From Hormiphora californensis (Eukaryota; Animalia; Ctenophora): a DNA stretch of 64,000 bases. This document shows, piece after piece, positions 1 to 53,454 of the stretch (position 1 is its first letter; each line of letters opens with the position of its first letter). The DNA lies in NCBI GenBank assembly GCA_020137815.1, contig CM035356.1, forward strand, positions 6,882,001 to 6,946,000, in the 5' to 3' direction. Under the pieces are notes generated by a model. It ran no database searches. It saw only the letters and a list, made by a program, of their open reading frames with translations, and was not told the origin of the DNA. The position numbers and the translations under genes are program-made.

Positions 1-43
1 GCGGTGAGAGGACCAACAGTAATCTATAACACTACCAACTCAC

Positions 44-107
44 CTTCGTCATCTGAACTGCTGTCAGAGTCAACTAACTCAGGGGGAGGGTCATCGGGAG
101 GCATCAT
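44..107 (-). CDS. Probable first coding exon of an unidentified gene running off the window, head-to-head with TSPO
   Basis: Minus strand reads MMPPDDPPPELVDSDSSSDDE followed by a consensus G|GTGAGT donor (38-43). No homology recognised. Confidence 0.4.
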
Positions 108-188
108 TGAAGCTAGTCACAGGGAAGTTGTGTTATTGTACAAGAAGATTTAGGAGATTATTATGTTGATTGGGAACGAGAGAGGGGT

Positions 189-273
<85 letters not shown>

Positions 274-419
274 AACAGAATAGGATTCTCAATAGATCAC
301 GTGACAAGGATAGTCTCCTTTCCTGGTTTGTGTCTGCTTCTACACACACTATCCTTCTTCTCTCTACATCTCTGTTGTTGTTACTGTGAGATCTATCTTT
401 TGTCTATCTTTTTTATACC

Positions 420-3416
420 ATGTATAACTGCCATGGTGGTCGTTGGTTATGGTGGGTGATATGCTTGTTCATTCCTACTCTTATCACAATTACTTTATTT
501 ACCTGGCTGGATACCAGTAAAGACACGTAAGTAGAGTGAGAGAGTGTTAGGAAGGGAGACTAAAAAAAGAGATGTTTAGAGCAAAGAGATTAATTTAAAA
601 CTAGAAAGTTTGAGTAAGGAGAGATTAGGAGATAGTTATTTTCTACGGTAGCTGAAGTGAAAGAATTAAAGTTAAAATGAGTGACCCCTAAAGCGCTTGC
701 CAGCGCCACATTTGGTGCAAGGGAGGGAAGGGACACTGCTTGCTGCTGCAACTTGTAATTTTCCAGTACTCACTCACACCCATACTACACTCATATTCTC
801 GAATACACCTGCAGATTCGTTTCCACTTGCACCTGCTGGTATTCTCATATACATCTGACCAGAGCTGAGCTATTCTCTAATACACCTGTAGCTCTTTCAT
901 CTGCACCAGCAGCTATTCTCCCTTCCACCTGCACCGCTATCCTCCCTCTCATCTCTCAGGTATGAGGATCTAATAAAACCGGAATGGTTACCCCTCAGTA
1001 TCAAGGGAGAACCCCTCGCACCAGAAATAATCATGGTCACGTGGTTTATACTCAGTTTCGCACATGGAGCTGCCGGTTAGTGAACAGATCTTTTGATAAG
1101 CAGAGCATACTGCCGGTTCGAACTTATTTTTCTCGATACAACAAATCGTGGAGCGCAATATCAAATAGAATTCCATCTCTCTCCCCTGACTCTAGGCATA
1201 TTGATCACCTATCTTTCTCACTGACCACATGTCTCTATCTAGGTATCATGATGGTCTCTCACTGACCACATGTCTCTATCTAGGTATCATGATCGTCTCT
1301 CACTGACCACATGTCTCTATCTAGGTATCATGATCGTCTCTCACTGACCACTGTGTATGTCTCTATCTAGGTATTATGATCGTCTCTCACTGACCACATG
1401 TCTCTATCTAGGTACATTATGATCGTCTATCACTGACCACTGTATGACTCTATCTAGGTATCATGATCGTCTCGAAAAACACTCCCCACGAAAATTGGAA
1501 ATGCCCAATGATGTTCGCGTTTGCAGTGTTCCTTCTAATTTTCTACTCTTGGCCGGTGTTCTATTTTGTAATAGTTCTTCCTCTAGTGGTAAGTGAACTA
1601 TTTTAGACAAACTCACACACACACAGACACATCACTGATCACACACACAAACTCACACACACGCATTTCACTGATTCTCACATCACATTGTACAACAATA
1701 ATTCCACCCATGGTCCGTTAGTCCGTAGAACAGTCAGCAGCAGTCTCTCCCCCTCCCTTGCACTAGATATCCTACATCCTCAACTACCACGCCACTACTC
1801 CCTATAGATACACCGCACTAGAACAGCCAGAATGGATCCCCGAATATTCCTTCGTACTTCTAGCCGTACTGAACACTGGAGTCAGTATCATCGAGGGGCT
1901 GGGGTTGTCAACTTTTGCCAGCAAACAGGATGTGTTTAGTGCAGCGACATGGACTCCCATATTCCTTGCCCTCACGCTCTACAAGGCTGCATTCTTCGCA
2001 TACATTCTCTCACTCCTCTATTTTGTCCAAATAATGCTAGTAAGTTTTCAGTTTCACTCATTGTAAAATTCAGGCATAAGTTTTCAGTTTCACATTGTAA
2101 AACTCACATCATAAATTCACAAGTAAGCAGCAGCAGAAGCAGTAGCGTCCCTTCCCATTCTTCGATCCTCCTCCGCTCTACCTCCCTCCCTTGAGTCGTC
2201 CATGACACTGTGTCTGGTCTACCTCTCTCCTATGGGTCTTTGACAATGGGCCTCCCATCCTTTCTCCTATGGGTTTTTGACACTGGGCCTCCCATCCTCC
2301 CTCCCATGGGTTTTGACACTGGGCCTCCCATCCTCTCTCCAGATACGATGAATACAAGAAACCCGACTGGACACCCGGTTCCTCCTACGGGGTCATAGCG
2401 GCTGGATATGTTATCACTGGAATGCTTGATGGTATTGCTATTTACGCAGGACTCCAGGTGTCCCGATATGAACTCTTCAAGAGTGTATCTACTGCAATTG
2501 TGTTCCTGTTTTTCAAAGCTTTCTACTTCATTTGGCCAGCACTCCTGTTCTACTTTGGGAACCTTATCATGGTACGGCGTACGCCTTCACACAGTAATTT
2601 ATTTTCACACACAAATCTACATAGTCACATAGCCTCATATGCTTTTCATCACAGCGCTAACAAACATACTCATCCTCATACTGAACATGCAGCAGCAAGG
2701 TGTCCTGTCCCCCTCTGGCTCTCTCCCTCTCCCTCCTTCTCTCTCTGGCTCTCTCCCCTCCTCCTTCTCTCTCCAGCTCCATCCATCTCTCCCCTCGACT
2801 CTCGATTTCCACAGTTACGAGGAATTATCCCACCCCAATTTCCTTCCCTCTGGAACCTTCTTCCCCATCTCCGGAGCGGGTCTTGTGTTCACCGGACTCT
2901 TTGAGGGAGGAGCACTTATGGTAGCCATCCACTCAACTGATTACAAGGCGGTACGGAGCAGATTGATCTTGAACATCGGGTTGAACTTCAAGATATTGAC
3001 CTACCTCTGGCCAGTATTTCTCTTCGGGTACACTCAACTCATGGTGGTAGGTATGATGAGAAATTCAAAAACAAAAGAGCCGGGAAACGGGGTTAAAAGG
3101 GGCTACTGCAGCTGCTGTACTGTTTCAATTAACATGCTCACTGTATCACACTCCTCTCACATCTTAATCACAAATCATATATTTTGTTTCTATGTACTTT
3201 TATCCATCTTTTACACTGACTAAAAAACTGATAAATATTTCTCTTTTTCAGACTTTCCTGATTGCATGCTTAGCGGCCGTCAGTGCGTTTATCGTTCTGG
3301 GATTATTTGTAAAACTCTATGATTTTGCTGGAATCCTCATGCTACCATCGTGCTTATGGTTCACTGCTCTGAGCATCTACAGTTACTATTTGTGGACCTT
3401 GAACAAGAGCGACTGA
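420..3416 (+). CDS. TSPO: Translocator protein (TspO/MBR family) with four alternative middle cassettes; isoforms of 166-172 aa
   Basis: Constant exon 1 is 420-526 (MYNCHGGRWLWWVICLFIPTLITITLFTWLDTSKD, phase-2 GTAAGT donor). Constant last exon is 3252-3416 (TFLIACL...AGILMLPSCLWFTALSIYSYYLWTLNKSD*), resembling the TSPO TM5 pattern AxxLLxPYxxWxxF...WxxN. Cassettes carry YxxLxKPxWxP-like and WPxFxF-like motifs. Spliced length matches TSPO (~170 aa, 5 TM). Confidence 0.85.
714..750 (+). promoter_or_regulatory. Candidate RNA docking site in TSPO intron 1
   Basis: GGTGCAAGGGAGGGAAGGGACACTGCTTGCTGCTGCA is reverse-complementary to segments at 907-935, 1735-1763, 2130-2193 and 2688-2705, one upstream of each cassette. 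Confidence 0.7.
960..1588 (+). CDS. TSPO: TSPO cassette A (two exons, 960-1075 and 1458-1588)
   Basis: YEDLIKPEWLPLSIKGEPLAPEIIMVTWFILSFAHGAA-G-IMIVSKNTPHENWKCPMMFAFAVFLLIFYSWPVFYFVIVLPLV. Enters phase 2, has an internal phase-1 intron, exits phase 0 at GTAAGT; 247 nt (3n+1). Confidence 0.8.
1216..1472 (+). repeat. Six tandem 41-46 bp copies of a 3' splice site plus exon start
   Basis: Unit CTCACTGACCACATGTCTCTATCTAG|GTATCATGATCGTCT; the AGs end at 1242, 1283, 1324, 1370, 1411 and 1457. Confidence 0.9.
1808..2039 (+). CDS. TSPO: TSPO cassette B
   Basis: TAG acceptor and GTAAGT donor, 232 nt (3n+1). YTALEQPEWIPEYSFVLLAVLNTGVSIIEGLGLSTFASKQDVFSAATWTPIFLALTLYKAAFFAYILSLLYFVQIML. Confidence 0.8.
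2343..2571 (+). CDS. TSPO: TSPO cassette C
   Basis: CAG acceptor and GTACGG donor, 229 nt (3n+1). YDEYKKPDWTPGSSYGVIAAGYVITGMLDGIAIYAGLQVSRYELFKSVSTAIVFLFFKAFYFIWPALLFYFGNLIM. Confidence 0.8.
2815..3046 (+). CDS. TSPO: TSPO cassette D
   Basis: CAG acceptor and GTAGGT donor, 232 nt (3n+1). YEELSHPNFLPSGTFFPISGAGLVFTGLFEGGALMVAIHSTDYKAVRSRLILNIGLNFKILTYLWPVFLFGYTQLMV. Confidence 0.8.
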
Positions 3417-3447
3417 GGACTACTGCTACTGGGGAGACGAAATACAA

Positions 3448-5082
3448 CACGGTGCACCAGAAGGATCGTCAACCCAAAGTTGAGCCCACAAAACAAACTT
3501 TTGTTGGGGGTGACCCAGGAGGCCTTCCTGAACATCCCCACGGTGAGAAAAGTATATGTTATCGGGGGAATTTTTTGTTAAAATCGAAAAAACTGGTTTT
3601 TGGTCCAAATTTGTGCATAACTTACTTGACTGCCGTTTGATGAAATATCTGATTGACATAAAATAAGTATACAAGACCTATTTTTGCACGAGGAATCGAT
3701 TGCCGGTGGAGAGAAATCTCTAAAATGACCGGAAAATTGTCAAATATGGGAATTTTGTCATTTTTTTGAGGTTTTTGGCCCTTTAACCATTGAAAACGTT
3801 GAGATAGGAAGTTGGCAATAGCGCCAATCGTTAAAATGGTCATTTTTCTACGGGATCCCAAAATTTCATGTATATCCGATTTATGGTTAGATTTTGGCAA
3901 ACTATTGAGATGTGCTTACTGAAAAAAGGATAACTTGATTTTCTCGTTTTTTGCGATTTTTTAACTTTTGACAGAATTCTGATTGAAATGGCCAATCAGG
4001 GCCATGCTAAAGTTGTTTATGGGACAATTTTCGACCAAAATCCAAGATTTCATGCAAATCCAATGACAGATCATTGGTTTATAGAAAGTTGAAATAGGCA
4101 AAAAAGGCCAATTTTTACCATGAAAATAAAAATTCACATTTTTTCTGGTCAATTTCCGTCAACAACTGGTACCCTACCTATTTTTGCACGTAGAATCGAT
4201 TGCCGGTGGAGTGGATCCTCTTAAATGATTGGAAAGCGGTCGAAATGCCATTTTTGGGCGTTTTTTTGGGCCTCCAAAAAATGGCATTTCGACCGCTTTC
4301 CAATCATTTAAGAGGATCCACTCCACCGGCAATCGATTCTACGTGCAAAAATAGGTAGGGTACCAGTTGTTGACGGAAATTGACCAGAAAAAATGTGAAT
4401 TTTTATTTTCATGGTAAAAATTGGCCTTTTTTGCCTATTTCAACTTCTATAAACCAATGATCTGTCATTGGATTTGCATGAAATCTTGGATTTTGGTCGA
4501 AAATTGTCCCATAAACAACTTTAGCATGGCCCTGATTGGCCATTTCAATCAGAATTCTGTCAAAAGTTAAAAAATCGCAAAAAACGAGAAAATCAAGTTA
4601 TCCTTTTTTCAGTAAGCACATCTCAATAGTTTGCCAAAATCTAACCATAAATCGGATATACATGAAATTTTGGGATCCCGTAGAAAAATGACCATTTTAA
4701 CGATTGGCGCTATTGCCAACTTCCTATCTCAACGTTTTCAATGGTTAAAGGGCCAAAAACCTCAAAAAATGACAAAATTCCCATATTTGACAATTTTCCG
4801 GTCATTTTAGAGATTTCTCTCCACCGGCAATCGATTCCTCGTGCAAAAATAGGTCTTGTATACTTATTTTATGTCAATCAGATATTTCATCAAACGGCAG
4901 TCAAGTAAGTTATGCACAAATTTGGACCAAAAACCAGTTTTTTCGATTTTAACAAAAAATTCCCCCGATAACATATACTTTTCTCACCGTGGGGATGTTC
5001 AGGAAGGCCTCCTGGGTCACCCCCAACAAAAGTTTGTTTTGTGGGCTCAACTTTGGGTTGACGATCCTTCTGGTGCACCGTG
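3448..5082. mobile_element. 1.6-kb foldback non-autonomous DNA transposon with Chapaev/CMC-like ends
   Basis: Two ~810-bp near-perfect inverted arms with a ~20-bp spacer near 4265. Termini CACGGTG...CACCGTG are flanked by the 4-bp direct repeat ACAA (3444-3447, 5083-5086). Confidence 0.8.
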
Positions 5083-5307
5083 ACAAAAGACTTCAGTTTT
5101 GAGTTTTATGTAACGAACAAATAACAATGAGCGATGTTTTATACTGCAACTCTCAGCTTACAAATCTGTAAATTTTATCTGTGAATTATCAAATTGGGCT
5201 TTTTTGAGAAATAAACAGGAAGAGCTACGAGGCGAGGAAAACCTTTGTTATACCCAGTCCTTTTGTTAAGTATTACAATGGTTTTCGGGTAACGACTCCA
5301 TTTTATC

Positions 5308-5449
5308 ATGAGGAGCCTCGGAAATGTTCAGGTCATGCACTTTCAGGTCACGCCCACCAATCACAGCTCAGAACGCACGGATCACAAGAGCTGTGATTGG
5401 TGTGCGTGACTTGAATGTGCATGACCTGAACATTTCCGAGGCCCCTCAT
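5308..5449. mobile_element. Short palindromic MITE-like element
   Basis: ATGAGGAGCCTCGGAAATGTTCAGGTCATGCAC...GTGCATGACCTGAACATTTCCGAGGCCCCTCAT. Confidence 0.65.
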
Positions 5450-5451
5450 CG

Positions 5452-5676
5452 TAAAGTCGGATTTTTTGAAACTGTCACCCCCCTGAAATAACAAATTTGT
5501 CATATCTCCGGTTCCTAATAAGATAGAGACTTGAAATTTGGAGGTTCGGAAGAACTTAGCAAGATCTTTATAACCTCCAAATTTCAAGTCTCTATCTCAT
5601 CAGGAACCGGACTTATGGTCATTTAAAGAAATTTGAAAACTCAGGGGGGGTGACAGTTTCAAAAAATCCGACTTTA
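5452..5676. mobile_element. MITE; second copy at 47305-47530
   Basis: TIR TAAAGTCGGATTTTTTGAAACTGTCACCCCCC at both ends; a near-identical copy lies 42 kb away. Confidence 0.8.
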
Positions 5677-6455
5677 TTCTTAAGCATTGGCGAAGCTAGG
5701 CTGTGTCCAGTGTGGTCCTGGAAGTTGGAATTGGCATACGTTGCAGGCCCCTTATAATATAATATAAGGGGCCTGGAGGGAATACCGCGCTGGGGGGGAA
5801 TACATAATCAATCATATCTCCGGTTCCAGATAAGGTACAGAAATCGTTTTGGTAGCGTTGGAAAGAGGAAGATAAGAGCTTTTAAATGCAACCGGTTTCA
5901 GGTCTCTATCTTATCAGGAACAGGAGATATGAACCAAACTCCGCAAAATCGAGTGCGGTAAAATCGAAATTTGAATGAAATTTAAAAAAAGGTGTCCCTG
6001 CAGGAATCTGTGACGTCACTTTTTGAAAACAACCCATCTTTCAACGGCTATTGCTCAGCCTCCTTAAGTCCAATTAACTTCTCTCAAAAACAGCAAGGTA
6101 GATAATCGTCAGATCTAACAACTGGTGAAAGAATCAAGTCAAACGGACTACAGGAGCCAAAGTTATAAGCACCGCCGTTTTTTCGACCGCAAAGTTATCT
6201 TCGACCCAGCCGGGCTCAGGCCAAACGCGCGCGCGGCATTCCCTTCAGTCCCCTCGTTGCGGGGGTGCGCGCATGAGGGGGCTGCAGCGCATTCCAAAAG
6301 TTGGAACACCGAACAGGACGCACTTTTCAGTTTTCGTCGCGGGAAAGGAAAAAAAAATTCTGGCGCGCGGCTTTTTTGGCAGCGTTTTAAGTGGACAAAA
6401 TTCGCGCGTTACATTTACTTAACTCCCACGCAATATTTTTCTTTGGGCCCATCAA

Positions 6456-7055: not shown

Positions 7056-18068
<11,013 letters not shown>

Positions 18069-19244: not shown

Positions 19245-20777
19245 CTATAACTCTTCTTTAGGCTCTTCTCTCCTTGGCCTTTTCTCGGGAGCTTTCTCAC
19301 TCGGCGACAAAGTTTCTTCATTTTCTATCACAGTGTCACCCATTTGCTGACTGTCTGCTGTCACAGTGTCACCCATTCTCTGACTGTCTGCTGTGAGGCT
19401 GTCACCCATTTTCTGACTGTCTGCTGCTAGGCTATCACCCATTTTCTGACTGTCTGCGGCGAGGCTGTCACCCATTTTCTGACTGTCTGCTGCTAGGCTA
19501 TCGCCCATTTTCTGACTGAAACTAACAACCGGTTCACCACCCACCATCTCACTATAACTAAGTTTCGGAGTCTCACTTGGTATGGACATTGGCTCAACAT
19601 CATTCAAGATCTGCACCGACTGGGTAAGTTGACCCATCATCTCATTGTTCATATTGTTGTCATTTTGACCCTCACCAACACTGTCTCCCATCTCTTGAGT
19701 TTCAATTTCCTCCTCCTCCTGAGGAAGTTCCTCTTCTTCCTCATCATCCTCATCCTCCTCTAACAACCACTCCCAGACAGACTCTCGAGCAGTATGACTG
19801 GTCCAACTATGGTCAGGTGTCCCGGCTGACCTAATCCCAGGACCCATCCTGGTGTCCAATGGCTTCCCCGAACTCACCCAATTCACCACCCTCACCCCAT
19901 GACCTATCTGACCCCACTGAACACCATCAGTTAGCGCCACCCTCCGCACGACCCTCCCAAAATTAGGGAACTCCTTTGCCAGCCTCTGAACAACAACACC
20001 CCCGTAACTATGCGCCACGATCATCACACTTCCCTCGGTACACCCCTCTAGAAACTGGTTCCAAACCGTAAAGGCGTGCTCAACAGGGCTACCCGATCCA
20101 ACGAAACGACCCCCAGACTCATTCGTGTTCAACACCAGGATATCGAGATTGTTTTTCTGGGCCCAGGTTATGTAGGGGAACATAGCACCAGCATTGAGGT
20201 CATTGTTCATTATAATTGCACGTGCCCACATGCCAGCACGAACAGCCCCACTACCATTGATCAGGACCAGTTTATCGGCGGATGAAGTACTGAATCCAGG
20301 AGATGCAAACACAAATGATCGGGGTTCAATACTGTCAGGAGGTGGGTCAGAATTGTCAGGGTGCTTTGGTGATTCAGAATTGTCAGGGAGTGGTTCAGCA
20401 TTGTCAGGGGGTGGTTCGGCATTGTCAGGCTGGCTCGGTGGCGGTGGTTCAGTCTCTGTTACAAGTGTTTCAGTTCCAGTTTCAGTTTCTACCGGTGCTG
20501 CTGATGGTAACGGTGGAACTGAAATCCGTTCCAGCCCGTAATCCTCCTCTAACACCGTATAAACATGTTGCGTAACGGCATCCCCAATCCGCTCATACCG
20601 AGCCTGGTTCTCATACCGCGTTTTGAGGACATTAAACTCGAACTTGTTGTCATGGTCATCCAGGAATTCGCCCTCCGCGGTAAACCGGTACTCGGTGTTT
20701 TCAACTTTTCGTGCTACAGCCATGCTTGATAGGGATAGAAGGGGAAGTGAGAGGAGTAGGAGGGACCGTATTGCCAT
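19245..20777 (-). CDS. FAM172A: FAM172A/Arb2-domain protein, intronless, 510 aa
   Basis: Motifs RYERIG, LINGSGAVRAGMWARAIIMN, SPVEHAFTVW, VAHSYGG, VALTD, NWVSS, SAGTxxH. Hydrophobic N-terminus and C-terminal KEEL; 11-aa SQKMGDSLAAD repeats near 19340-19520. Confidence 0.9.
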   Translation of the reverse strand: MAIRSLLLLSLPLLSLSSMAVARKVENTEYRFTAEGEFLDDHDNKFEFNVLKTRYENQARYERIGDAVTQHVYTVLEEDYGLERISVPPLPSAAPVETETGTETLVTETEPPPPSQPDNAEPPPDNAEPLPDNSESPKHPDNSDPPPDSIEPRSFVFASPGFSTSSADKLVLINGSGAVRAGMWARAIIMNNDLNAGAMFPYITWAQKNNLDILVLNTNESGGRFVGSGSPVEHAFTVWNQFLEGCTEGSVMIVAHSYGGVVVQRLAKEFPNFGRVVRRVALTDGVQWGQIGHGVRVVNWVSSGKPLDTRMGPGIRSAGTPDHSWTSHTARESVWEWLLEEDEDDEEEEELPQEEEEIETQEMGDSVGEGQNDNNMNNEMMGQLTQSVQILNDVEPMSIPSETPKLSYSEMVGGEPVVSFSQKMGDSLAADSQKMGDSLAADSQKMGDSLAADSQKMGDSLTADSQRMGDTVTADSQQMGDTVIENEETLSPSEKAPEKRPRREEPKEEL

Positions 20778-20811
20778 GCTTTTAAGAAATTGTTATTCAG
20801 TCAACGGGTAG

Positions 20812-20953: not shown

Positions 20954-21860
20954 GAAGGAGGGGGGGGGGGTTATTGGAGAGAAACTGGAAGGGCCGTGGT
21001 CGGGTGGAAACTAAACTGTTTAGATTTTCAGAAGTGTCTGGGATTACGTTCGTAAAGACGGTTTCTATAAATTCTATGGGGATGGACTTTCTCATCTGAT
21101 CTGAAATGATGTTCATTGCACTGTCACTATCATCACCATTTCTTTCAATAACTTCAATCCTGCGTAATTGACCACAATATATGGAAAGGCTTACACCTCT
21201 GTATAATATATGCACATCAGGTAGTGCTTCTGTGGTCCAAAATAGACGCACATTACAAGGGGGCTGCACCAGGTTCATCTGTGGCAGAGAGAGAGGTGCA
21301 AGAGAGATAGAGGGGGAAGATTGTTATTGATAAGGAGGTGGGGTGCAGTGCATAATAGCTCTCTAGGGGAATAGACAGACGGGAGGGGAGGGTATAGGTC
21401 ATATCCGGGTCGTGAGGGGCTTGCATTCTCGCTAAATCTGCGGCCTGCCAACACCTGCAGTAATCAAAGCGCTTGCTCTCTCTCTATCATTTGATCGGGG
21501 GTCCCTTTATTTTTAGTTACCCGTCTGTACCTCTCGCTTGGCATTTCGAAGCTAAGCACATAACTGCATATTGAACAGAAGTTTTTCAACAAGTAGGTAA
21601 GTCATTTAATTCCTTTTTCAAAGGAAAGTCATTCCTTTCAATCATCCTTTGGGCAGTCCCTTGTTTCTACTAAGATGAACAGCTACTACAGCTCTAGTCG
21701 AGTCAACACCTAACTTAGCTGGAAATGTTTCAAAGACTTTGCTGTCTGCTGATTAGATCCTTTATCCAATATATTCCAGTAGTGATTGCACTTGACTGTT
21801 GACATTTGTATACAGCACATCCCCGCTCACCTTTGTTTCCCCCCTCTTTTCAGCCCGATA

Positions 21861-24800
21861 ATGTACGGGGCAAATAATGTCAGTATCGACATAAACAACG
21901 CCGCTGGTGCCGCTCGGAACAGAGCCTACTCTGGAGCCAGCAACTCTTCCTTCATCTCTAACTTCAGTTCCAACGCTGGGGGAGCCGCCGCTAACTCCTA
22001 CGCCAATGTAGCTGGGGCCGGTGCCAACTTTGGAGCTGGAGCCCAGAATGCATACAACGCTGGAGCCGGTGCCGCTCAGGGTGCCTACAACGCTGGAGCT
22101 GGAGCCGCTCGTGTTTCCATCAACACCATGGGCGCTGGAGCTCAACCATACGTGAACGTAGCTGGAGCCGGAGCTCAACCATACATGAATGTTGCTGGAG
22201 CCGGAGTCCAGCCATTTGCCGCTGGTGGTGTTCAGCCATACGGTGCCGGAGTCCAGAGTATCAACATCCAGGGAGCCGGAACTCAGCCATACGTTAACAT
22301 GGGAGGAGCTGGAGGTGCAATGCCCATCAGCGTTTCTGTCAACGGAGCTGGAGTCCAGCAGCCAAATGTGACCGTGATCGATGGTGGAGTCCCCTACAAC
22401 GTTACCCCTCAGGTTATCTCTGTGGTGGCGGCTGGTGCCCCCGCTGGAGGTTACCCTGCTGCTGGAGGTTACCCTGCTGGAGGTGCCCCCGCTGGAGGTG
22501 CCCCTGCTGGTGGTGCTCCTGCTGGTGGTGCTCCTGCTGGTGGTGCTCCTGCTGGAGGTTCTCCTCCCTACTATCACCACCATTGCCACGGAGGATACCC
22601 TGCTGGTGCTCCTGGCGGTGCTGGTGCTCCTGGTGCTGATGGTGCCCCTGGTGCTCCAGGCGGTGCTGGGCAACCTGGTGGTGCTGGACAACCCGGTGGC
22701 GCTGGACAACCCGGTGGAGCCGGACAACCCGGTGCTCCTGGCGGTGCCGGTTCTCCCGGTGGCGCTGGAGGCCCCGGTGGAAATGGAGGAAATGGTGGTC
22801 CAGGAGGAAACGGAGGACCTGGAGCTGGACCCGGAGGTTATCCTTATGGAGGTCCCGGAGGCCCAGGTGGAAACGGTGGTCCCGGAGGAAATGGAGGCCC
22901 AGGCGGAAACGGAGGTCCAGGCGGACCTGCCTACAGTCCTAACAGTTGTCCTATGGGAAACAATGGATGTCCTTTGGGTGGACCTGGAGGTCCTGGTGGC
23001 CCAGGAGGAAACGGTGGCCCTGGAGGACCCGGAGGTCCAGGTGGCCCAGGAGGTCCATTTGGACCCGGTGGTGCTCCCCTCGGACCTGGAGGTAATCCTC
23101 TAGGACCCGGTGGGCGAAGTCCTAATGGAGGTCCCGGAGGTCCTGGTGGCCCAGGAGGAAACGGTGGCCCAGGAGGTCCCGGAGGTCCAGGTGGCCCAGG
23201 AGGTCCATTTGGACCCGGTGGTGCTCCCCTTGGACCCGGTGGAAATCCTCTAGGACCCGGTGGACGAAGTCCTAATGGAGGTCCCGGAGGTCCTGGTGGC
23301 CCAGGAGGAAACGGTGGTCCCGGAGGTCCAGGTGGCCCAGGAGGTCCATATGGACCCGGTGGTGCTCCCCTTGGACCCGATGGAAATCCTCTTGGACCAG
23401 GTGGACGAAGTCCTAATGGAGGTCCCGGAGGTCCTGGTGGACCCGGCGGAAACGGTGGCCCAGGAGGTCCAGGAGGACCTGGAGGTCCATTTGGACCCGG
23501 TGGTGCTCCCCTCGGACCTGATGGTAATCCTCTTGGACCAGGTGGACCAAATCCTAATGGTGGACCTGATCCCAGATACCCTGGAGGAAACCCTCAGAAT
23601 CCCAATGGAGGTGGTCCAGGTGGTCCTGGAGGTCCCGGTGGCCCAGGAGGTCCAGGTGGCCCGGGAGGTCCCGGTGGAAACCCCAGAGGACCCGGCGGAA
23701 ACCCAAGAGGACCCGGCGGAAACCCAAGAGGTCCTGGAGGAAACCCTAGAGGTCCTGGAGGAAACCCCCGAAACCCCAACGGGGGCGGTCCAGGTGGTCC
23801 TGGAGGTCCCGGTGGCCCAGGAGGTCCAGGTGGCCCAGGAGGTCCCGGTGGAAACCCCAGAGGTCCCGGTGGAAACCCCAGAGGTCCCGGAGGAAACCCT
23901 CAGAATCCCAACGGAGGAAACCCTCAGAATCCCAACGGAGGAAACCCTCAGAATCCCAACGGAGGAAACCCTCAGAATCCCAACGGAGGAAACCCTCAGA
24001 ATCCCAACGGAGGCGGCCCAGGTGGACCCGGTGGCCCAGGAGGTCCCGGTGGTCCTGGAGGTCCCGGTGGTCCTGGACCTATTACTCCCAACAACCAGCG
24101 CCCACTCGGTGCTGGACCCGGAGGCCCAGGAGGTCCAGGAGGTCCCGGTGGCCCAGGAGGTCCCGGTGGCCCAGGAGGACCCGGTGGCCCTGACCCCCAC
24201 AACGGTCCTAGGCCTTGTCCCGGATACTCTATCGTCAAAGTTCCATGCTGTCAATGTGGAAAGCCTACAGGACCCGGAGGTCCAGGTGGTCCAGGAGGCC
24301 CAGGAGGTCCCGGTGGACCTGGAGGTCCCGGAGGCCCGGGAGGAAAGGGTGGTCCCAAAGACCCCAAAAATCCTAATGGAGGTCCCGGAGGAAAGGGAGG
24401 TCCCGGAGGTAAGGGAGGTCCCGGCGGACCTGGTGGCCCCGGAGGCAAGGGTGGCCCCAAAAATCCCAAAAATCCTAATGGAGGTCCCGGAGGAAAGGGA
24501 GGCCCAGGAGGTAAGGGAGGTCCCGGAGGTAAGGGAGGTCCCGGAGGCCCTGGCGGTCCCGGTGGACCTGACGACGATTCCTCTGTCCCTAGCTCTAGTG
24601 GAAGCTCTGGCCCCAGTTCTGGAGATGGACCTGACTCCGACGGAGATTCCGGCTGCTGCAACTGCTGTGGTCCTTCTAAGCCTGCTGATAAACCCAAAAA
24701 GGGAGGAAAGAAGCCCAAGAAGCCCAAAAAGGGAGGAAAGAAACCCGGAGACAGTAGTGATGATGATGATACCGATGACGGTCTGTCCTCCATTCTTGCT

Positions 24801-27800
24801 TCTTCTGCCCCCACTAGTGGCGATGGACCTAGCAGTGGCCCTAGCTCTGGAGCAGGAAAGAAACCTAAGACCAAGGGAGGAAAGAAGCCTAAAAATGGTG
24901 GAGACAGCGACCCCGATGACAGTGACGATGGTCCCGATTCTGGCGATGATGATTCCGACGGCGGTGGCTGTTGTGGACCTAAAAAGCCCAAAAAGGGAGG
25001 AAAGAAGCCTAAGGGTGGTGATGATGACAGTGACCCCGACAGTGATGATGGACCCTCATCTGGTAATGGACCCTCATCTGGTGATGGGCCCGATTCTGAT
25101 GGAGATTCCTCCGACGGCGGTGGCTGTTGTGGACCTAAAAAGCCCAAAAAGAAGAAGCCTACTGATGGAGGCCCAGGAGGCAAAGGAGGTCCCGGAGGCA
25201 AGGGTGGTCCTGGAGGCAAGGGTGGCCCAGGAGGCAAGGGAGGCCCAGGAGGTCCCGGTGGCCCCGGAGGAAAGGGTGGTCCCGGAGGCAAGGGTGGTCC
25301 CGGAGGCAAGCCCGACCCTAGGTGCCCCAACTGTGGAGAAAAAAAGCCAAAGAACGGTGATGCAGAAGATCCATATGGTCCAGGTGGTCGGTACGATCCT
25401 AACGATCCTGACAGGCCATACAATCCTTATGACCCTGAGGATCCTAACAATCCCTTCAGACCCGGTGGTATCTTGGACCCTGAGGGCCCCAACAGGCCTT
25501 ACAATCCCTGGGACCCCAACGATATTTGGAACCCATACAAGCCTGGTGGTCCGCTAGATCCCAATGACCCCAACGCACCATTTGACCCAGCTGACCCCAA
25601 CGATCCTCTCAACCCATTCAGGCCCGGAGGTCCCCTGGACCCTAACAGCCCGGACCGACCATACGATCCTTATGGTGATCATCCCATGAACCCATACAGA
25701 CCGGGCGGCCCTCTGGATCCCAACGATCCCTAACTGCCCCTACGATCCCAAGGACTTGAACCATCCCATGAATCCCTACAGGCCCGGTGGACCTCTTGAT
25801 CCAAGTGACCCCAACAGGCCCTACGATCCTTATGATCCTGACGATCCCAGGAATCCCTTCCGTCCAGGAGGCCCCTTGGACCCCAACGATCCCAACAAAC
25901 CTTACGATCCATTTGACAACAACGACCCCAACAACCCCTTCAGGCCAGGCGGTCCCCTGGATCCTAATGACCCCAACAAACCATATGATCCCCATGATCT
26001 GACCGATCCCAGGAATCCATTCCGCCCCGGTGGTGCTTTGGATCCCATGAGCCCCAACAGGCCCTACGATCCCTTCGATAACAACGATCCAAGGAATCCA
26101 TTCAGGCCAGGTGGCCCACTTGACCCCAATGATCCTGACATTCCCTACGATCCTCACGATTTGGATGATCCCAGAAATCCATTCCGCCCCGGAGGTCCCC
26201 TAGATCCCATGAGCCCTAACAGGCCCTACAACCCCTTCGATAACACCGACCCGAGGAACCCCTTCCGACCTGGCGGTCCTCTTGACCCCAACAACCCAGA
26301 CATTCCCTACGACCCCAGGGATATGAGCGATCCCCGAAATCCTTTCAGGCCCGGTGGCCCATTGGATCCCAACAGTCCTCTACGAAACTACAACCCCAAC
26401 GACATGAATGATCCTAACAATCCCTTCCGCCCCGGTGGTCCTCTTGACCCTAACCGAGGCAAGAAGCCCAAGGATGACAAGCCTAAGGACCCTAGCGACG
26501 GAGGCAAGAAGCCTAAAGACCCTACCGACGGAGGCAAGAAGCCTAAAGCTGGTGGCAAGAAGCCTAAGAAGAGCGATCCTGATACCGACTCCAGTGGTAC
26601 AAGTGGTCCATCCAGTGGCAGCGGACCATCCAGTGGTAGCAGCGGCCCATCATCCAGTGGCGGCTCCAGTGGCCCATCTAGCACCAGCGGAGACAGTGAT
26701 GCCGGATGTTGTGGACCCAAGAAGCCTAAGGATGACGGAAAGAAGCCCAAGGATGACGGAAAGAAGCCTAAGGATGGTGGCAAAAAGCCTAAGGATGGCA
26801 AGAAACCCAAGAAGGGAGCCCCAGATGATGATGATAGCGACGGTGATAGTGACGGATCTTGCGGCTGCTGTGGACCTGAGAAGAAGCCAAAGGGCAAGAA
26901 ACCAGGAAAGTGCAAGTACTGCAAGAAACCACTCCGACCTGATGATGATCCTTTCGGTCCCAGTCCCTATGGACCTGGAAGTAGTCCCTACGGACCAAGC
27001 CCATATGGACCAGGAGGTCCCGGTGGCCCAGGAGGTCCTGGTGGCCCAGGAGGACCTGGAGGCCTCGGAGGATGTCCTTACAACCCATGGGGTCCTGGAG
27101 GTCCAGGAGGTCCCGGTGGCCCAGGAGGTCCTGGTGGCCCTGGAGGCCTCGGAGGATGTCCTTACAACCCATGGGGTCCTGGAGGTCCAGGTGGCCCAGG
27201 AGGTCCCGGTGGACCTGGCGGTCCCGGAGGTAATGGAGGTCCCGGTGGATGTCCCTTCGCCCCAAGAAGCCCAAACGGAAACAATCCCAACGGAAACAAT
27301 CCCAACGGCAACAACCCCAACGGTAATAACCCCAACGGTAATAACCCCAACGGTAATAACCCCAACGGTGGGCCCGGAGGTCCCGGTGGACCTGGAGGCC
27401 CAGGTGGTCCTGGAGGTCCAGGTGGTAATGGAGGCCCTGGCGGAGACCCCAACAACCCCAACGGAAACAATCCCAACGGCAACAACCCCAACGGTAACAA
27501 CCCCAACGGGAACAACCCCAACGGTGGGCCCGGAGGTCCCGGTGGACCTGGAGGCCCAGGTGGTCCTGGAGGTCCAGGAGGCAATGGAGGACCTGGCGGA
27601 GACCCCAATAACCCCAACGGTAACAACCCCAACGGTAACAACCCATGGGGACCCGGTGGACCCGGAGGTAACGGTGGACCAGGAGGTCCTGGAGGCCCCG
27701 GGGGAGTCGGAGGTCCCGGAGGAGTTAACCCCACTGGCTGTATGCCCTGGGGACCCGGAGCAAACGGCGGACCTGGAGGTAACGGTGGTCCCGGAGGACC

Positions 27801-28095
27801 AGGAGGTCCCGGTGGTAACGGCGGTCCCGGTGGATACGGCGGATGCCCCAACGCTGGATGTCCCTATGGTGGAGGTCCCGGTGGTCCTGGAGGAGCTGGA
27901 GGTCCTGGTGGACCTGGAGGTCCCGGAGGTGCTGGAGGATGTCCCTACTACCAACCAGCATACTGCCCAGGAGGGGGATCTGTTGCCTCAGGCGGAGGTG
28001 CCAGTAGCACCACTGGATACTACGTTGGATACCGTATGGTGCCATATTACTACAGCTACAGCTATCCTACTGGACGGTACAGCTACAGATACTAA
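21861..28095 (+). CDS. Giant Gly/Pro-rich repetitive structural protein (~2,077 aa), single coding exon, one +1 frameshift near 25730
   Basis: ORFs 21786-25733 and 25756-28095 join if one C is removed from GATCCCTAAC, restoring DPNDPNCPYDP. ATG 21861 follows a CAG acceptor (21853), with a candidate UTR donor AG|GTAAGT at 21597. Synonymous variation among repeats indicates selection at the protein level. Confidence 0.85.
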
Positions 28096-28234
28096 ATGCC
28101 AACCATTAAATAACTATTTACTTCATCAAAATTTTCATCTCTGTGTATAATAATTTGCATATATTTCAATTTGCAAAAGATGTGTTTCAATTTGTCAAAT
28201 TTGTCAAAACGTTAAAAAAAACTGCAATTCTTCG

Positions 28235-49567: not shown

Positions 49568-52500
49568 TTAAATTGTTGAGTTTCTTCTCTGTAAAGTGTC
49601 CTCATACGAAGTCGTATTGTCTGAACCAACGGCAGTTTCTTGAATCCTGTCTTTCGTTGGCATAGATCTACATCTAGAGCATTTCATCTTCATCTCAATG
49701 CAATTCGATTTGACATCGGTAACTTGGAACTTCTCTTCTGTCTTGTTCACTGGCATTTTATCAGCGGTAGTGTTTTGTTGGCGAGAATTATCTACAGATA
49801 ATTGATCGACTGGCTCGGGTATGACTGGTATACCACGAAACATTCCACGGATTGATGGCCAAGAATTGAAAGTGGCCAGAATTCTTCCCGTGACAGGTCT
49901 CAGCACGTCAATTATTTTAGTCGGGGTATCACTGTACAAAAGTGGGTTTAGAACAGAGTTAATTGGTAGGATATTGAGGGAGAAGACTTGGTACCAGGGT
50001 GACATATCCACAACCTCAGCCGTATGGAGGGCACAACAAATCAGAAAGGGTATCCAGCAACAAAAGTCCGTTAGACACAACAAAGTAACTTTGTGACCAA
50101 GTCTATTATTTGTGCGTCGGTTTGCCCCAACTGCCACTTTTCTTGAAAAGACCACAATTAAAATGTGGCATATCGCCACGACCACAAAGCAGAGAAGGTG
50201 AAGGCTGATGTAGAGCCAGACAAAGACAACCTGAGGATCATTGGAGAGAACAAAAAACTTGAACATACAAACTGGATCGTTACCGTAGAATGATACCTTT
50301 TTACTAGAAACAGTCCCATAATCCGCAGAAAACATTCCCGCTACTATCTCCCGAATTGTAGTCCAGGAAATGTCGGCCTTCCGTCGGGAACGTTCGGAGT
50401 ACCTTACCCCGTAGTAGCCATAGAAAATCTGCAAAAACCGAGACTTATCCACCGTGCCAAGGAAAAGTGCTATATTCTTAGGAAATACAAGTCCGTTGAC
50501 AAACCAATCTTCCAAAGAGTCTAATAGAGGCACTAACGCAAATGCGAGAGACATAAGCATGATCGACACCAGGCATATAGTAACTTTTACTTTAAGGCCC
50601 TGCGAGACTTTTTCAGACTGCCTGAAATGGAGAGCTCTTCTTGTTCCATAAAGCCGGTACACGCTTATACACGCCATGGCTAAGGAGGAAACTGTTGCAC
50701 CGACTGTGTTAAGTACGCCTATGATGTTACAAGGTCGCCCACTTATCCACTCCGATCGATTAACACAGAAATCCGTGCTTTCAATAATATGCAGAATTGT
50801 TAAGGTGAGGAGATAGCAGGGAGTAAATAGATCTCCGAAGGAAATTGCAAGCACAAAGATATGGTTCACAAAGGCCCCATTTTTTTCTGGAAGTTTTTGG
50901 AAACATTCTCTAATGAAGGCTGCAAGTCCTATAAAAATGCCCAGGACCCCCATAATAGATGCGATCACAAAAGTTGCATAATCTTCGATTTTCTTCCTCT
51001 TGCAGCTACTATTGCACTCATCAGAAAAGTCCTTGCAATCTGTTTTTCCATCGCATTTCTGGCTCAGAGGTAAGAACGAGGAATTATCGGTACACTGAAA
51101 GTTATTGGTACAACTGGCTTCCTCATCAGACCTGTCCCCACAGTCATCAACCAGATCACACACTCTCTCAAAAGGAATACATTTTCCATTTTTGCACACG
51201 AACACGTTGTTATGAAATGCAGTTTTTTGCCGGAAAACTGATGTCACAACATTTAACTCCGCGTTAAGTGAGTAAACAGCAATCGGGAGATTATAACATG
51301 AATTATGCAGCACCGGTCTGGTCAAAGGACATACCGCATGTGTACACTGCCCAGTACAGCTGTAAAAGACGTAAGCCTCACCGTAGAGGTATCTACAATC
51401 TTGCTTCTGGTGCAACGTGACAAGGGCTGTTGTGAGGTTTTTACCGAAGAATTGGTGAAATGAATGGTCGAACGTTCGGAGTAAGCATTGCTCCTTCATA
51501 TGAAACACCACCGAGGATAGACCTTTGTTGCACACATTTCCAACCAGTAATTCATTTCCAATTAGTTTGGTGATCGAAGATCGGAAAAGAGTTTTCTTTA
51601 GATTTACCCTTCTTCTCGCACCCTGACAGGCCTCCTCGTCGCACGAATTATGGGTTGAAAAACACATGGTGGAAGTTTCTAGGAATTCTGAATGGTTGCC
51701 ATGACACAAGAACACGTTAGAGCACGGTCTTGTATCCACCTTAATCCTCAGAGTGGTGCCATTGCCGCACTTTTCCCAATTATTTTTCTCATCGACGCCG
51801 CTCTCACAATCTACAACTCCATCTTGGATCCAATCCACCGGAACTCGAGAAAACTTCCCAAACCGTCTCTGACATTTGTGAGTGGTAATTTTTCCAGGTC
51901 CACACCAAATTTTACTCTCATCGATACCACCAGCACAATCCTCTGTGCCATCACACAGCCTATGTTTATGAATAAAACAGTGGCGACCAACCTTGACACA
52001 CTCCAACTCTATCCCATCATCACACAGCCGTGGAGTCTTATTGGCACTACAGATCATATAAATGGAAATAGTGCTGGGATAACCTCTCACCAGACAGCTA
52101 CCCCCAACTTTGGTTGGATCGGTGCAATTAGTTTGGTCCATTCCCGTATATACGCAGTAGGCAGAGGTTCGAACAATCACAGAGAAAAATGTGTTAATTC
52201 GACCTCTCGTTGTCAAGAAACATCTTGAACCATTAAACAAGGGGAAGCTACTGGGGTATCCAAGCATTGTGGCAGACGCTTTACAGTGTGGTGCACCGTG
52301 ATCCCAGGGACGGACAGTACCTTTTTCCGGCATTCCCTGGAACGGCATGAAAACCAGATCGTCAGAAATAGTTCCGTATGTGAGTCCACCTCCACAATCC
52401 CGCTCCTCTACACATGTCAGTTTGAGCATCGGTGTGAGAGTCTTGCCTTTCCTAATCCAGATATCGTCACATATCCCATCGCAAACACCACCAGCTTTCA

Positions 52501-53044
52501 ACTCGACATGGACAACAGTTCCATTTTGCAAAGTTAGCGGATGAAGCATACTGCCCACGGTTTTATCACTACAGGCCTGCGAGTCCCTCTGGACCACCAA
52601 ACCGTTGGAGCCATCCTGACAAACAACCCCACAAACGGGCTGCTGGTCGAACATTTTAACACGACTCATATCATAAAAATTACCTATGCCGCACGCCTGA
52701 TATATAGCGTGGTCGTTTGGGCAGCGCAGAGAAACCTTGATTGATAATGTACGACTCATACCCTCGTAGACAACCTGTTTTGTATAGGTCATATTGGGGG
52801 AAGTGACGCATTGGTAGGTATTCTCGGTACACCTGCGACCTAGGAACCCATCCTCATTTACAATGGGGCAAAGAAGTGTCCCTTCCCCCTGCGTATCAGA
52901 AGACTGAACTTCAGACTTGGTCTCGGCCCCAATTGAGAGAGATCGGATAACGGTGGTCACTGATTTAGTGGTGTCTGTTCTACTTTTGTCTGGGGCGATC
53001 ACTGCTGAACTCAGCGCTAGCCCCATCAATATTATAAGGGGCAT
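49568..53044 (-). CDS. Intronless LDLa-repeat GPCR (GRL101/RXFP-like 7TM, no LRRs seen), 1158 aa
   Basis: Signal peptide; Cys-rich ectodomain with LDLa units (CDGTEDCAGGIDE, FVCKNGKCIPFERVCDLVDDCGDRSDE, CDGKTDCKDFSDE); 7TM with CLTDFCCWIP and LPINSVLNPLLY. Confidence 0.9.
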   Translation of the reverse strand: MPLIILMGLALSSAVIAPDKSRTDTTKSVTTVIRSLSIGAETKSEVQSSDTQGEGTLLCPIVNEDGFLGRRCTENTYQCVTSPNMTYTKQVVYEGMSRTLSIKVSLRCPNDHAIYQACGIGNFYDMSRVKMFDQQPVCGVVCQDGSNGLVVQRDSQACSDKTVGSMLHPLTLQNGTVVHVELKAGGVCDGICDDIWIRKGKTLTPMLKLTCVEERDCGGGLTYGTISDDLVFMPFQGMPEKGTVRPWDHGAPHCKASATMLGYPSSFPLFNGSRCFLTTRGRINTFFSVIVRTSAYCVYTGMDQTNCTDPTKVGGSCLVRGYPSTISIYMICSANKTPRLCDDGIELECVKVGRHCFIHKHRLCDGTEDCAGGIDESKIWCGPGKITTHKCQRRFGKFSRVPVDWIQDGVVDCESGVDEKNNWEKCGNGTTLRIKVDTRPCSNVFLCHGNHSEFLETSTMCFSTHNSCDEEACQGARRRVNLKKTLFRSSITKLIGNELLVGNVCNKGLSSVVFHMKEQCLLRTFDHSFHQFFGKNLTTALVTLHQKQDCRYLYGEAYVFYSCTGQCTHAVCPLTRPVLHNSCYNLPIAVYSLNAELNVVTSVFRQKTAFHNNVFVCKNGKCIPFERVCDLVDDCGDRSDEEASCTNNFQCTDNSSFLPLSQKCDGKTDCKDFSDECNSSCKRKKIEDYATFVIASIMGVLGIFIGLAAFIRECFQKLPEKNGAFVNHIFVLAISFGDLFTPCYLLTLTILHIIESTDFCVNRSEWISGRPCNIIGVLNTVGATVSSLAMACISVYRLYGTRRALHFRQSEKVSQGLKVKVTICLVSIMLMSLAFALVPLLDSLEDWFVNGLVFPKNIALFLGTVDKSRFLQIFYGYYGVRYSERSRRKADISWTTIREIVAGMFSADYGTVSSKKVSFYGNDPVCMFKFFVLSNDPQVVFVWLYISLHLLCFVVVAICHILIVVFSRKVAVGANRRTNNRLGHKVTLLCLTDFCCWIPFLICCALHTAEVVDMSPWYQVFSLNILPINSVLNPLLYSDTPTKIIDVLRPVTGRILATFNSWPSIRGMFRGIPVIPEPVDQLSVDNSRQQNTTADKMPVNKTEEKFQVTDVKSNCIEMKMKCSRCRSMPTKDRIQETAVGSDNTTSYEDTLQRRNSTI

Positions 53045-53454
53045 GTTCCTGCGGGTTAATTATTACATTAGTACCCTGATAAAATCAATCGATTTATTTA
53101 GAGGCATAGCAATGAACATGTCCCAAAAAGGGGCGTAGCGTGGCCTAGCTTAGCCTCGCTACCTCCCGCTTGTCCGGGTCCAAGGAAGGACGGTCAGAAG
53201 GTTATAAACCCTCAACAAGGTGCAGCCCTGCTCGGGATGTAGTAGGCAAGAAGGGTTGAGGGGCTGCAAGTACTGGTAGGGGTCGAGGGGGCGAAGTGAC
53301 CAGTAGGCAGGGGGTCAATTAAAAAGTGAGGAGAGAGGGTCACGCAATCTACAAAGTGGATTTAATGTTGTTTCAAAATATTATGTTATTATTTGTATAA
53401 ATATCGTAGAATCGGTGGAATAAAATTATAAAAAAAGGTTTGGTGCTCTATTCA

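Follow-up and report, generated by a model that had tools for sequence, protein, structure and literature searches.

A divergent TSPO-family gene of the ctenophore Hormiphora californensis with four candidate mutually exclusive cassettes and predicted intronic docking sites

RESULTS

Four homologous cassettes between two constant exons

We analyzed 64,000 nucleotides (nt) of the Hormiphora californensis genome (assembly GCA_020137815.1, contig CM035356.1, positions 6,882,001 to 6,946,000 of the forward strand), referred to here as the window; all positions are numbered within it. A gene on the forward strand at 420–3416 contains a constant first coding exon, four cassettes (A to D), and a constant last exon, and as judged from its sequence it is a divergent member of the TSPO family. 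TSPO proteins bind porphyrins or heme, or cholesterol, and in animals they are located in the mitochondrial outer membrane.

The first coding exon (420–526, 107 nt) starts with ATG at 420, encodes transmembrane segment 1 (TM1), and ends in phase 2 at a GT donor; from residue 14 onward it aligns with TM1 in a profile of bacterial TspO. Cassette A consists of two pieces totaling 247 nt, the first (960–1075) encoding loop 1 and TM2 and the second (1458–1588) encoding TM3, with orthologous pieces at L001:124–206 and L001:321–466, L001 being a locus of a relative. Cassettes B (1808–2039, 232 nt), C (2343–2571, 229 nt), and D (2815–3046, 232 nt) follow, and the last exon (3252–3416, 165 nt) encodes TM4, TM5, and the stop codon. 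AG is present at all six acceptors (960, 1458, 1808, 2343, 2815, and 3252) and GT at all six donors (526, 1075, 1588, 2039, 2571, and 3046). Every cassette is 3n+1 long, opens with a YxxxxxPxW/FxP motif, and ends in phase 0, 12 residues past the Trp or Tyr of TM3, which we take to be the place of the last intron of human TSPO (12 residues past the TM3 Trp, phase 0).

The first-pass annotation of this DNA, made from the sequence alone, had proposed these exons, splice sites, and phases, and all of its coordinates were reproduced. Any one cassette joined to the constant exons gives a protein without an internal stop, of 172 (A), 167 (B), 166 (C), or 167 (D) amino acids (aa). Omission of every cassette shifts the frame, as had also been claimed, and leads to a stop after 38 aa. 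When two cassettes were joined through the canonical acceptors, a stop was encountered inside the second one in all six ordered pairs, and inclusion of either piece of A alone also led to a stop. Cassette pairs share 16–23 identical residues among 76–82 (20–30% in protein), with shuffle z values of 3.7–11.1 and at most 1 of 300 shuffles scoring as high in each of the six pairs. The cassettes are homologous exons in tandem, similar in length and equal in phase, with a constant exon on either side, as in a mutually exclusive cluster.

Two features of the introns inside cassettes were also observed. The acceptor of the second piece of A is repeated in a tandem array of six 41-nt units (1216–1473, forward strand); the five upstream decoy copies lead to stops after 77–81 aa, and the last copy alone gives the 172-aa protein. 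The introns within cassettes are lineage specific: A is split at places 15 nt apart in the window (1075/1458) and in L001 (206/321), an intron inside B occurs in L001 only (778/880), and one inside C apparently occurs in the database record P0023. These places suggest repeated intron gain, giving two-exon cassettes.

Cassettes in related species

A search with cassette C gave 3 matches among 62 candidates, the best of which, P0001, is a Pleurobrachia bachei protein containing cassette C at 100% and cassette D at 93.5% identity; the other relatives are, from their sequences, inferred to be ctenophores. With the last exon, 3 matches were obtained among 22 candidates, and from metagenome contigs scanned with the same exon, 215 stretches yielded 2 loci. 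A profile search returned 16 matches, all of them pieces of this gene, and a third homolog search yielded nothing new, its three matches being already known. The last exon is 85–91% identical in three relatives, and D orthologs are 44–95% identical.

L001 carries A (two pieces, 229 nt), B (two pieces, 232 nt), and the last exon, ordered as in the window, and both cassettes are 3n+1 long. Between the window and L001, 44 of 76 residues are identical in A, 59 of 77 in B, and 46 of 54 codons in the last exon, with proportions of nonsynonymous and synonymous differences (pN/pS) of 0.28/0.92, 0.16/0.70, and 0.12/0.82, respectively. On these sequence comparisons, purifying selection on A and B is strong.

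Many database records read through the end of a cassette into the following intron. A Val, as encoded at the GT donor, stands directly after the cassette end in 28 of 29 such records and one residue later in the other; not counted were P0001, the last-exon records (three), and P0027, whose end lies within a cassette. Many of the read-through records are alleles and ten of them form one cluster, so they are not independent. All five D-type read-through records (P0021, P0022, P0024, P0028, and P0031) are open with the donor at the end. In a tree of 14 full-length cassettes and 4 bacterial rows, the A, B, C, and D groups were obtained with 4 label changes, the smallest number that is possible; shuffled labels needed 10.9 on average, and none of 200 shuffles was as low. 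B and D carried starred support (96/99 for the single D branch), A had 90/89, and C had 72/77, and the long branches make the order between groups unreliable. The grouping by type, together with the conservation, means that the four cassettes predate the divergence of species whose synonymous sites are nearly saturated. The cassettes are thus kept as coding sequence across species, and the conservation that the first-pass annotation had proposed to look for in related genomes was found.

Splice-junction records

In record P0014 the last exon follows cassette C, and in P0015, which L001 encodes, it follows cassette B; both joins fall at the residue predicted. P0030, which shares 50 identical residues with P0014, instead continues with Val-Ser at the GT donor, and P0032 and P0033, which share 43 identical residues with P0015, likewise continue with Val-Ser. 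P0019 for C, and P0026 and P0034 for B, also run into a donor. Since records of the same exons run into the donor, the P0014 junction skips D and the P0015 junction skips C and D. The B and C records share contig sizes of 4276, 2857, and 2074, so they presumably come from the same contig. That L001 represents a genome without C and D was considered and rejected, because read-through records with the identical B exon run into the donor and because of these shared contig sizes. The earlier proposal that all four cassettes are used thus has junction records in its favor for B and C, each singly joined to the last exon in relatives, but no such record was found for A or D.

The restriction of the junction records to B and C would also fit a gene that uses only these two (or fewer), with A and D silent or in decay in this lineage. 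The six-residue insertion of window A relative to L001, the five decoy acceptors that yield stops, and the fast divergence of D orthologs (44–52% in three records) point the same way. However, A is open, 3n+1 long, and under purifying selection relative to L001, every D-type read-through record has an open D that ends at a donor, and both cassettes keep a selector, an intron element described below. We regard loss of A and D as quite improbable.

It was also considered whether the cassettes are alternative 5′ ends, produced by a spliced leader or by separate promoters, so that short proteins without TM1 are made and 420–526 serves A only. In favor of this, no record with an exon 1 junction was found, an internal Met opens both P0014 and P0015, and spliced leaders are present on at least 56% of Hormiphora Iso-Seq reads (PMC8527503). 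Nevertheless, all four cassettes begin in the phase supplied by exon 1, no start codon precedes the loop-1 motif in any cassette, and the profile match described below spans TM1 through TM5 in all four isoforms. In addition, an element in intron 1, DOCK1, matches the selectors of all four cassettes and therefore makes sense only on one pre-mRNA, and such separate 5′ ends appear highly improbable.

Complementary elements in the introns

DOCK1 (712–751) is a predicted docking site in intron 1 that is complementary to four selectors, one before each cassette and all on the forward strand. Selector A (901–937) lies 24 nt before acceptor 960, selector B (1730–1769) 40 nt before acceptor 1808, selector C (2119–2164) about 180 nt before acceptor 2343, and selector D (2687–2723) 93 nt before acceptor 2815. 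The calculated duplexes with DOCK1 have energies of −42.8 kcal/mol for A (2 of 300 shuffles as low), −57.2 kcal/mol for B, −53.7 to −59.8 kcal/mol for C, and −50.4 kcal/mol for D (0 of 300 each); when the dock was shuffled, 4, 0, 0, and 0 sequences were as low for A, B, C, and D, respectively. The last intron contains DOCK2 (3087–3125, forward strand), a predicted weaker docking site that is a degenerate copy of DOCK1 and is complementary to selectors B, C, and D (0, 2, and 5 of 300 shuffles as low).

These elements were located by an unbiased scan in which 40-nt segments of intron 1 and of the last intron were compared with the introns before B, C, and D; it peaked at 717–756 and, lower, at 3077–3126, and the selector A stretch came from a list of inverted repeats. 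Eighteen DOCK1 positions are paired in all four duplexes, so the selectors overlap on one dock, and at 7 positions the selectors vary yet the pair is kept. Among 6386 segments on both strands, selectors B, C, and D were the partners of DOCK1 at ranks 1, 2, and 3, and selector A was at rank 7. In a test that was corrected for the search and kept the local composition, the best sum was −157.7 for intron 1 versus −88.7 ± 6.4 (0 of 45) and −113.2 for the last intron versus −79.1 ± 9.3 (0 of 70). The two introns that precede no cassette, the one within A and the last one, served as controls, and 86 and 22 of 300 shuffles, respectively, were as low with DOCK1. In L001, A and B are each preceded by a 20-nt motif particular to that locus, 19 of the 20 positions being identical, and five consecutive residues of its translation recur in that of the intron preceding C in P0009.

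Two simpler origins of the complementarity were rejected. Plain purine/pyrimidine complementarity was ruled out by block shuffles and the two control introns, and a dispersed repeat was ruled out because the remaining good partners of DOCK1 are single sites with no relation to one another. An Rfam search of positions 1–6000 found nothing within 420–3416, with 14 sub-threshold hairpin matches elsewhere.

The first-pass annotation had attributed exclusivity to reading frame and stops; the stops are present, but the candidate RNA-pairing switch had been overlooked. Competition between splice sites, together with decay of products that are out of frame, could in principle be the sole source of exclusivity, in which case the complementary stretches would be relics or serve another purpose. 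Double and null products made through canonical sites do stop early, so that decay alone would clean the output, and pairing states for B and D are absent from the minimum free energy (MFE) folds. On the other hand, the complementarity withstands the search-corrected, composition-keeping shuffles, is not seen in the two introns preceding no cassette, and has a counterpart in the repeated motif of L001 at the same places. Intron relics of duplication should have decayed, because the cassettes retain so little protein identity, and decay alone has been argued to be a poor fit for clusters that exceed three exons (PMC6071210). Competition and decay as the sole cause thus appear improbable.

The statement that two cassettes always run into a stop held for the canonical acceptors but requires one exception. 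Cryptic in-frame acceptors at 2693 and 2696, inside selector D, permit a C+D protein of 283–284 aa, joined as in the gene model P0001. This tandem protein was rejected as the main product since intron sequence forms both ends of P0001 and its join is made at a cryptic acceptor in selector D; it may have minor use. Pairing of selector D would mask both cryptic acceptors.

TSPO-family membership and the predicted pocket

The Pfam family TspO_MBR (PF03073) has a gathering score of 24 bits. No TspO match was found by Pfam in six of the seven single exons of the window, the exception being the last exon (12.1 bits, E value 0.17, model positions 100–144). Partial records scored 23.9 (P0014), 23.4 (P0021), 23.3 (P0001), 20.8 (P0002), and 10.7 and 10.5 bits (B forms), and 12 other pieces or records of the gene had no TspO match in Pfam. 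The comparison with the TspO_MBR hidden Markov model that had been suggested earlier thus approached the cut-off from below, at 10.5–23.9 bits for partial records.

We therefore also used our own profile of 81 bacterial TspO proteins, made from L002 (154 bits in Pfam) and 80 genome loci. The full isoforms aligned with it from TM1 to TM5 and scored 24.4 (A), 14.9 (B), 27.3 (C), and 30.2 bits (D), and 0 of 200 whole-isoform shuffles were as high for each of them. When only the cassette was shuffled, 0, 18, 0, and 0 of 200 were as high for A, B, C, and D; by these counts, cassettes A, C, and D each contribute TSPO signal, and the most derived cassette is B. The loop-1 motif and the P-x-x-W motif of TM5 were aligned in all four isoforms.

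Structural comparisons were made with P0014. A model built with bacterial TspO rows, which lacks TM1, had a predicted local distance difference test score (pLDDT) of 82.7 and a predicted template modeling score (pTM) of 0.69, values that are circular because the alignment supplies the fold. With this partly circular model, the top ten Foldseek rows were TSPO (TMq 0.67–0.83, E 0.08–0.2), and BcTSPO was at rank 1 in VIA (Z 11.8, root mean square deviation 1.5, 101 aligned residues), tied with a designed bundle. A model from ctenophore rows only, with no bacterial rows, gave one long helix (pTM 0.26). The language-model neighbors were TspO clusters at 0.86, which we treat as a lead only. A profile of the ctenophore pieces had no match among PDB sequences, and P0014 had none among plasmids.

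In RsTSPO, heme lies between F46, W50, and W87, beneath R43 of loop 1, and W30 and W135 are also conserved (PMC10077581). The four conserved pocket tryptophans are not all retained here. The position of W30 is Thr in all isoforms and W135 is kept in all; the position of W50 is Trp in A only and Asn, Ile, and Phe in B, C, and D, where the alignment is uncertain; and the position of W87 is Trp in A, C, and D and Tyr in B. Because RsTSPO positions 43–88 fall within the cassette, the term "swappable pocket" used in the first-pass annotation is anatomically right. Of its prediction of four binders, the TSPO-like character of the proteins and the correspondence of the cassettes to loop 1, TM2, and TM3 were supported, but the proteins diverge and one pocket Trp is lost in every isoform. 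From the sequences, we lean slightly toward the isoforms differing in ligand preference.

Neighborhood of the gene

A foldback element of 1.6 kb (3448–5082), with arms 96–99% complementary and a 15-nt center at 4258/4274, starts 32 nt past the TSPO stop codon and would sit in the 3′ untranslated region; smaller hairpins lie at 5302–5455 and 5501–5617. In L001, an Arg/Ser-rich reading frame (1644–2264, reverse strand) converges on the TSPO gene, and it has only low-complexity matches in the window. Farther along the window, long GC-rich Gly/Pro repeat reading frames occur at 21786–28150, with no Pfam match in the two that were scanned (1315 and 801 aa). Pfam identified a kinase piece (15086–15481), an Arb2/hydrolase (19245–20792, reverse strand), NOB1 pieces (37024–40344, reverse strand), a 7tm_1 domain (42493–43137), a reverse transcriptase (43410–46148, reverse strand), and an LDLa plus 7tm_1 receptor in a single 1163-aa frame (49568–53059, reverse strand). 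No link to TSPO was seen by Pfam in these neighbors between 15086 and 53059.

DISCUSSION

Taken as a whole, the data are probably best explained by a TSPO gene with four old cassettes that are spliced singly, the choice being made by RNA pairing. Mutually exclusive splicing of the cassettes is very likely, and control of the choice by DOCK1 and the selectors is likely; the chances that DOCK2 is functional are about even.

Several observations weigh against this explanation. In the MFE folds of six growing transcripts, DOCK1 was on selector A in five and on C in one, and never on B or D, and in the full-length MFE fold DOCK2 was on selector C, which would leave A and B both exposed. DOCK2 pairs with selector A at chance level (159 of 300 shuffles as low; −24.8 to −28.7), which may reflect only the weakness of selector A, and in the window-wide scan with DOCK2, GC-rich repeats came first, selector C fifth, and B and D outside the top 15. 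The 20-nt motif of L001 is unlike the selectors of the window, and its best partner within the contig reaches only −20.1, the intron 1 partner lying outside the contig. No joins of exon 1 to a cassette, of A to the last exon, or of D to the last exon were found among the database records searched. The P0014 and P0015 junctions are from other species, P0014 may be a gene model, and L001 retains four other intron stretches and may merge molecules. Finally, cassette B adds little TSPO signal, both in the cassette shuffles (18 of 200 as high) and in Pfam (10.5–10.7 bits).

In the mechanism that we propose, DOCK1 would pair with one selector at a time, because 18 of its positions are common to all four pairings. 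Pairing with the selector before a given cassette would loop out the cassettes upstream of it and place exon 1 next to that cassette. DOCK2 would engage a selector farther along, so that the cassettes downstream are looped out, the sharing of one selector set being the least certain step. Products with no cassette or with two would stop early and be degraded. Selector A is the weakest, yet it would form first during transcription as a local hairpin, and the later selectors, stronger by 8–17 kcal/mol, would offset their distance. As to origin, the most likely course is that an ancestral hairpin of intron 1, made of DOCK1 and selector A, had its 3′ arm duplicated along with the exon, a route of hairpin-arm duplication that has been proposed (PMC6071210). 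The outcome would be four five-helix proteins with identical TM1, TM4, and TM5 and a different lid and inner pocket wall, and the different pockets would probably have different affinity or chemistry for porphyrins, sterols, or other lipophilic ligands. Isoform A, which keeps the Trp of TM2, would be expected to come nearest to a canonical TSPO.

The arrangement resembles that of Dscam1 exon 6, in which each variable exon is preceded by a selector that can pair with one intronic element 3′ of the constant exon (Graveley 2005, via PMC6071210 and PMC4691838), the pairings overlap and compete, and pairing loops out upstream variants. It differs in having four cassettes rather than 48, a small membrane protein rather than an immunoglobulin receptor, and a ctenophore rather than an arthropod host; unlike those of Dscam1 exon 6, TSPO cassettes can be two-exon units, and the pairing here is predicted. 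Docks on both sides of the cluster are also found in Drosophila srp exon 4 and insect Dscam1 exons 4 and 9 (PMC4691838, PMC8042237), and insect Dscam docks likewise have clade-specific sequences in a conserved arrangement (PMC8042237). In srp and Dscam1 exons 4 and 9, each dock has a separate selector set (PMC4691838), whereas DOCK2 resembles DOCK1 and would use the same selectors, so the two systems would work alike with a different anatomy. As for the protein, the isoforms share with RsTSPO, BcTSPO, and mouse TSPO the length, five hydrophobic segments, the loop-1 Y..L..P.W.P motif, the TM3 Trp, the TM5 P..LW motif, and, as far as the partly circular model shows, the predicted TM2–TM5 fold; they are unlike the family in their highly divergent sequence, in Thr at the position of RsW30, in having Trp at the position of RsW50 only in A, and in Tyr at that of RsW87 in B.

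In the literature found, docking-site and selector control is described mainly in arthropods and in a few vertebrate genes, including insect and ATE1 systems. Neither a TSPO gene whose exons are mutually exclusive nor a docking-site case from a ctenophore was found there, although subscription papers or supplements could mention one, and the main text of the Hormiphora genome paper does not mention TSPO (PMC8527503). The TSPO family and exon clusters controlled by pairing are both known; this gene and this lineage were not expected places for such a cluster. Gene callers miss this architecture, the only named database model being the one that fuses C and D through introns.

TSPO has been studied extensively as a target for drugs and imaging, and its role in physiology is still not clear (PMC10077581). 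Four natural variants sharing TM1, TM4, and TM5 and differing only in the lid, TM2, and TM3 would provide a test of which pocket residues set ligand choice and porphyrin chemistry. Since the gene is compact, with four variants in 3 kb, the whole switch would fit in one minigene. With shared selectors, the exclusion of downstream variants, which is given as unknown for Dscam exon 6 (PMC6071210), would have an explanation that can be tested. If true, the ctenophore case would place docking-site and selector control at the base of animals or indicate that it evolved independently. More tentatively, and with the odds somewhat against it, ctenophores, the likely sister group of other animals, may use two homologous docks and one ladder of selectors to bracket a single cassette by RNA alone, with DOCK1 on one selector and DOCK2 on the next; the four resulting TSPO receptors with different pockets may then form a repertoire of porphyrin and lipid sensors that has been kept across the phylum.

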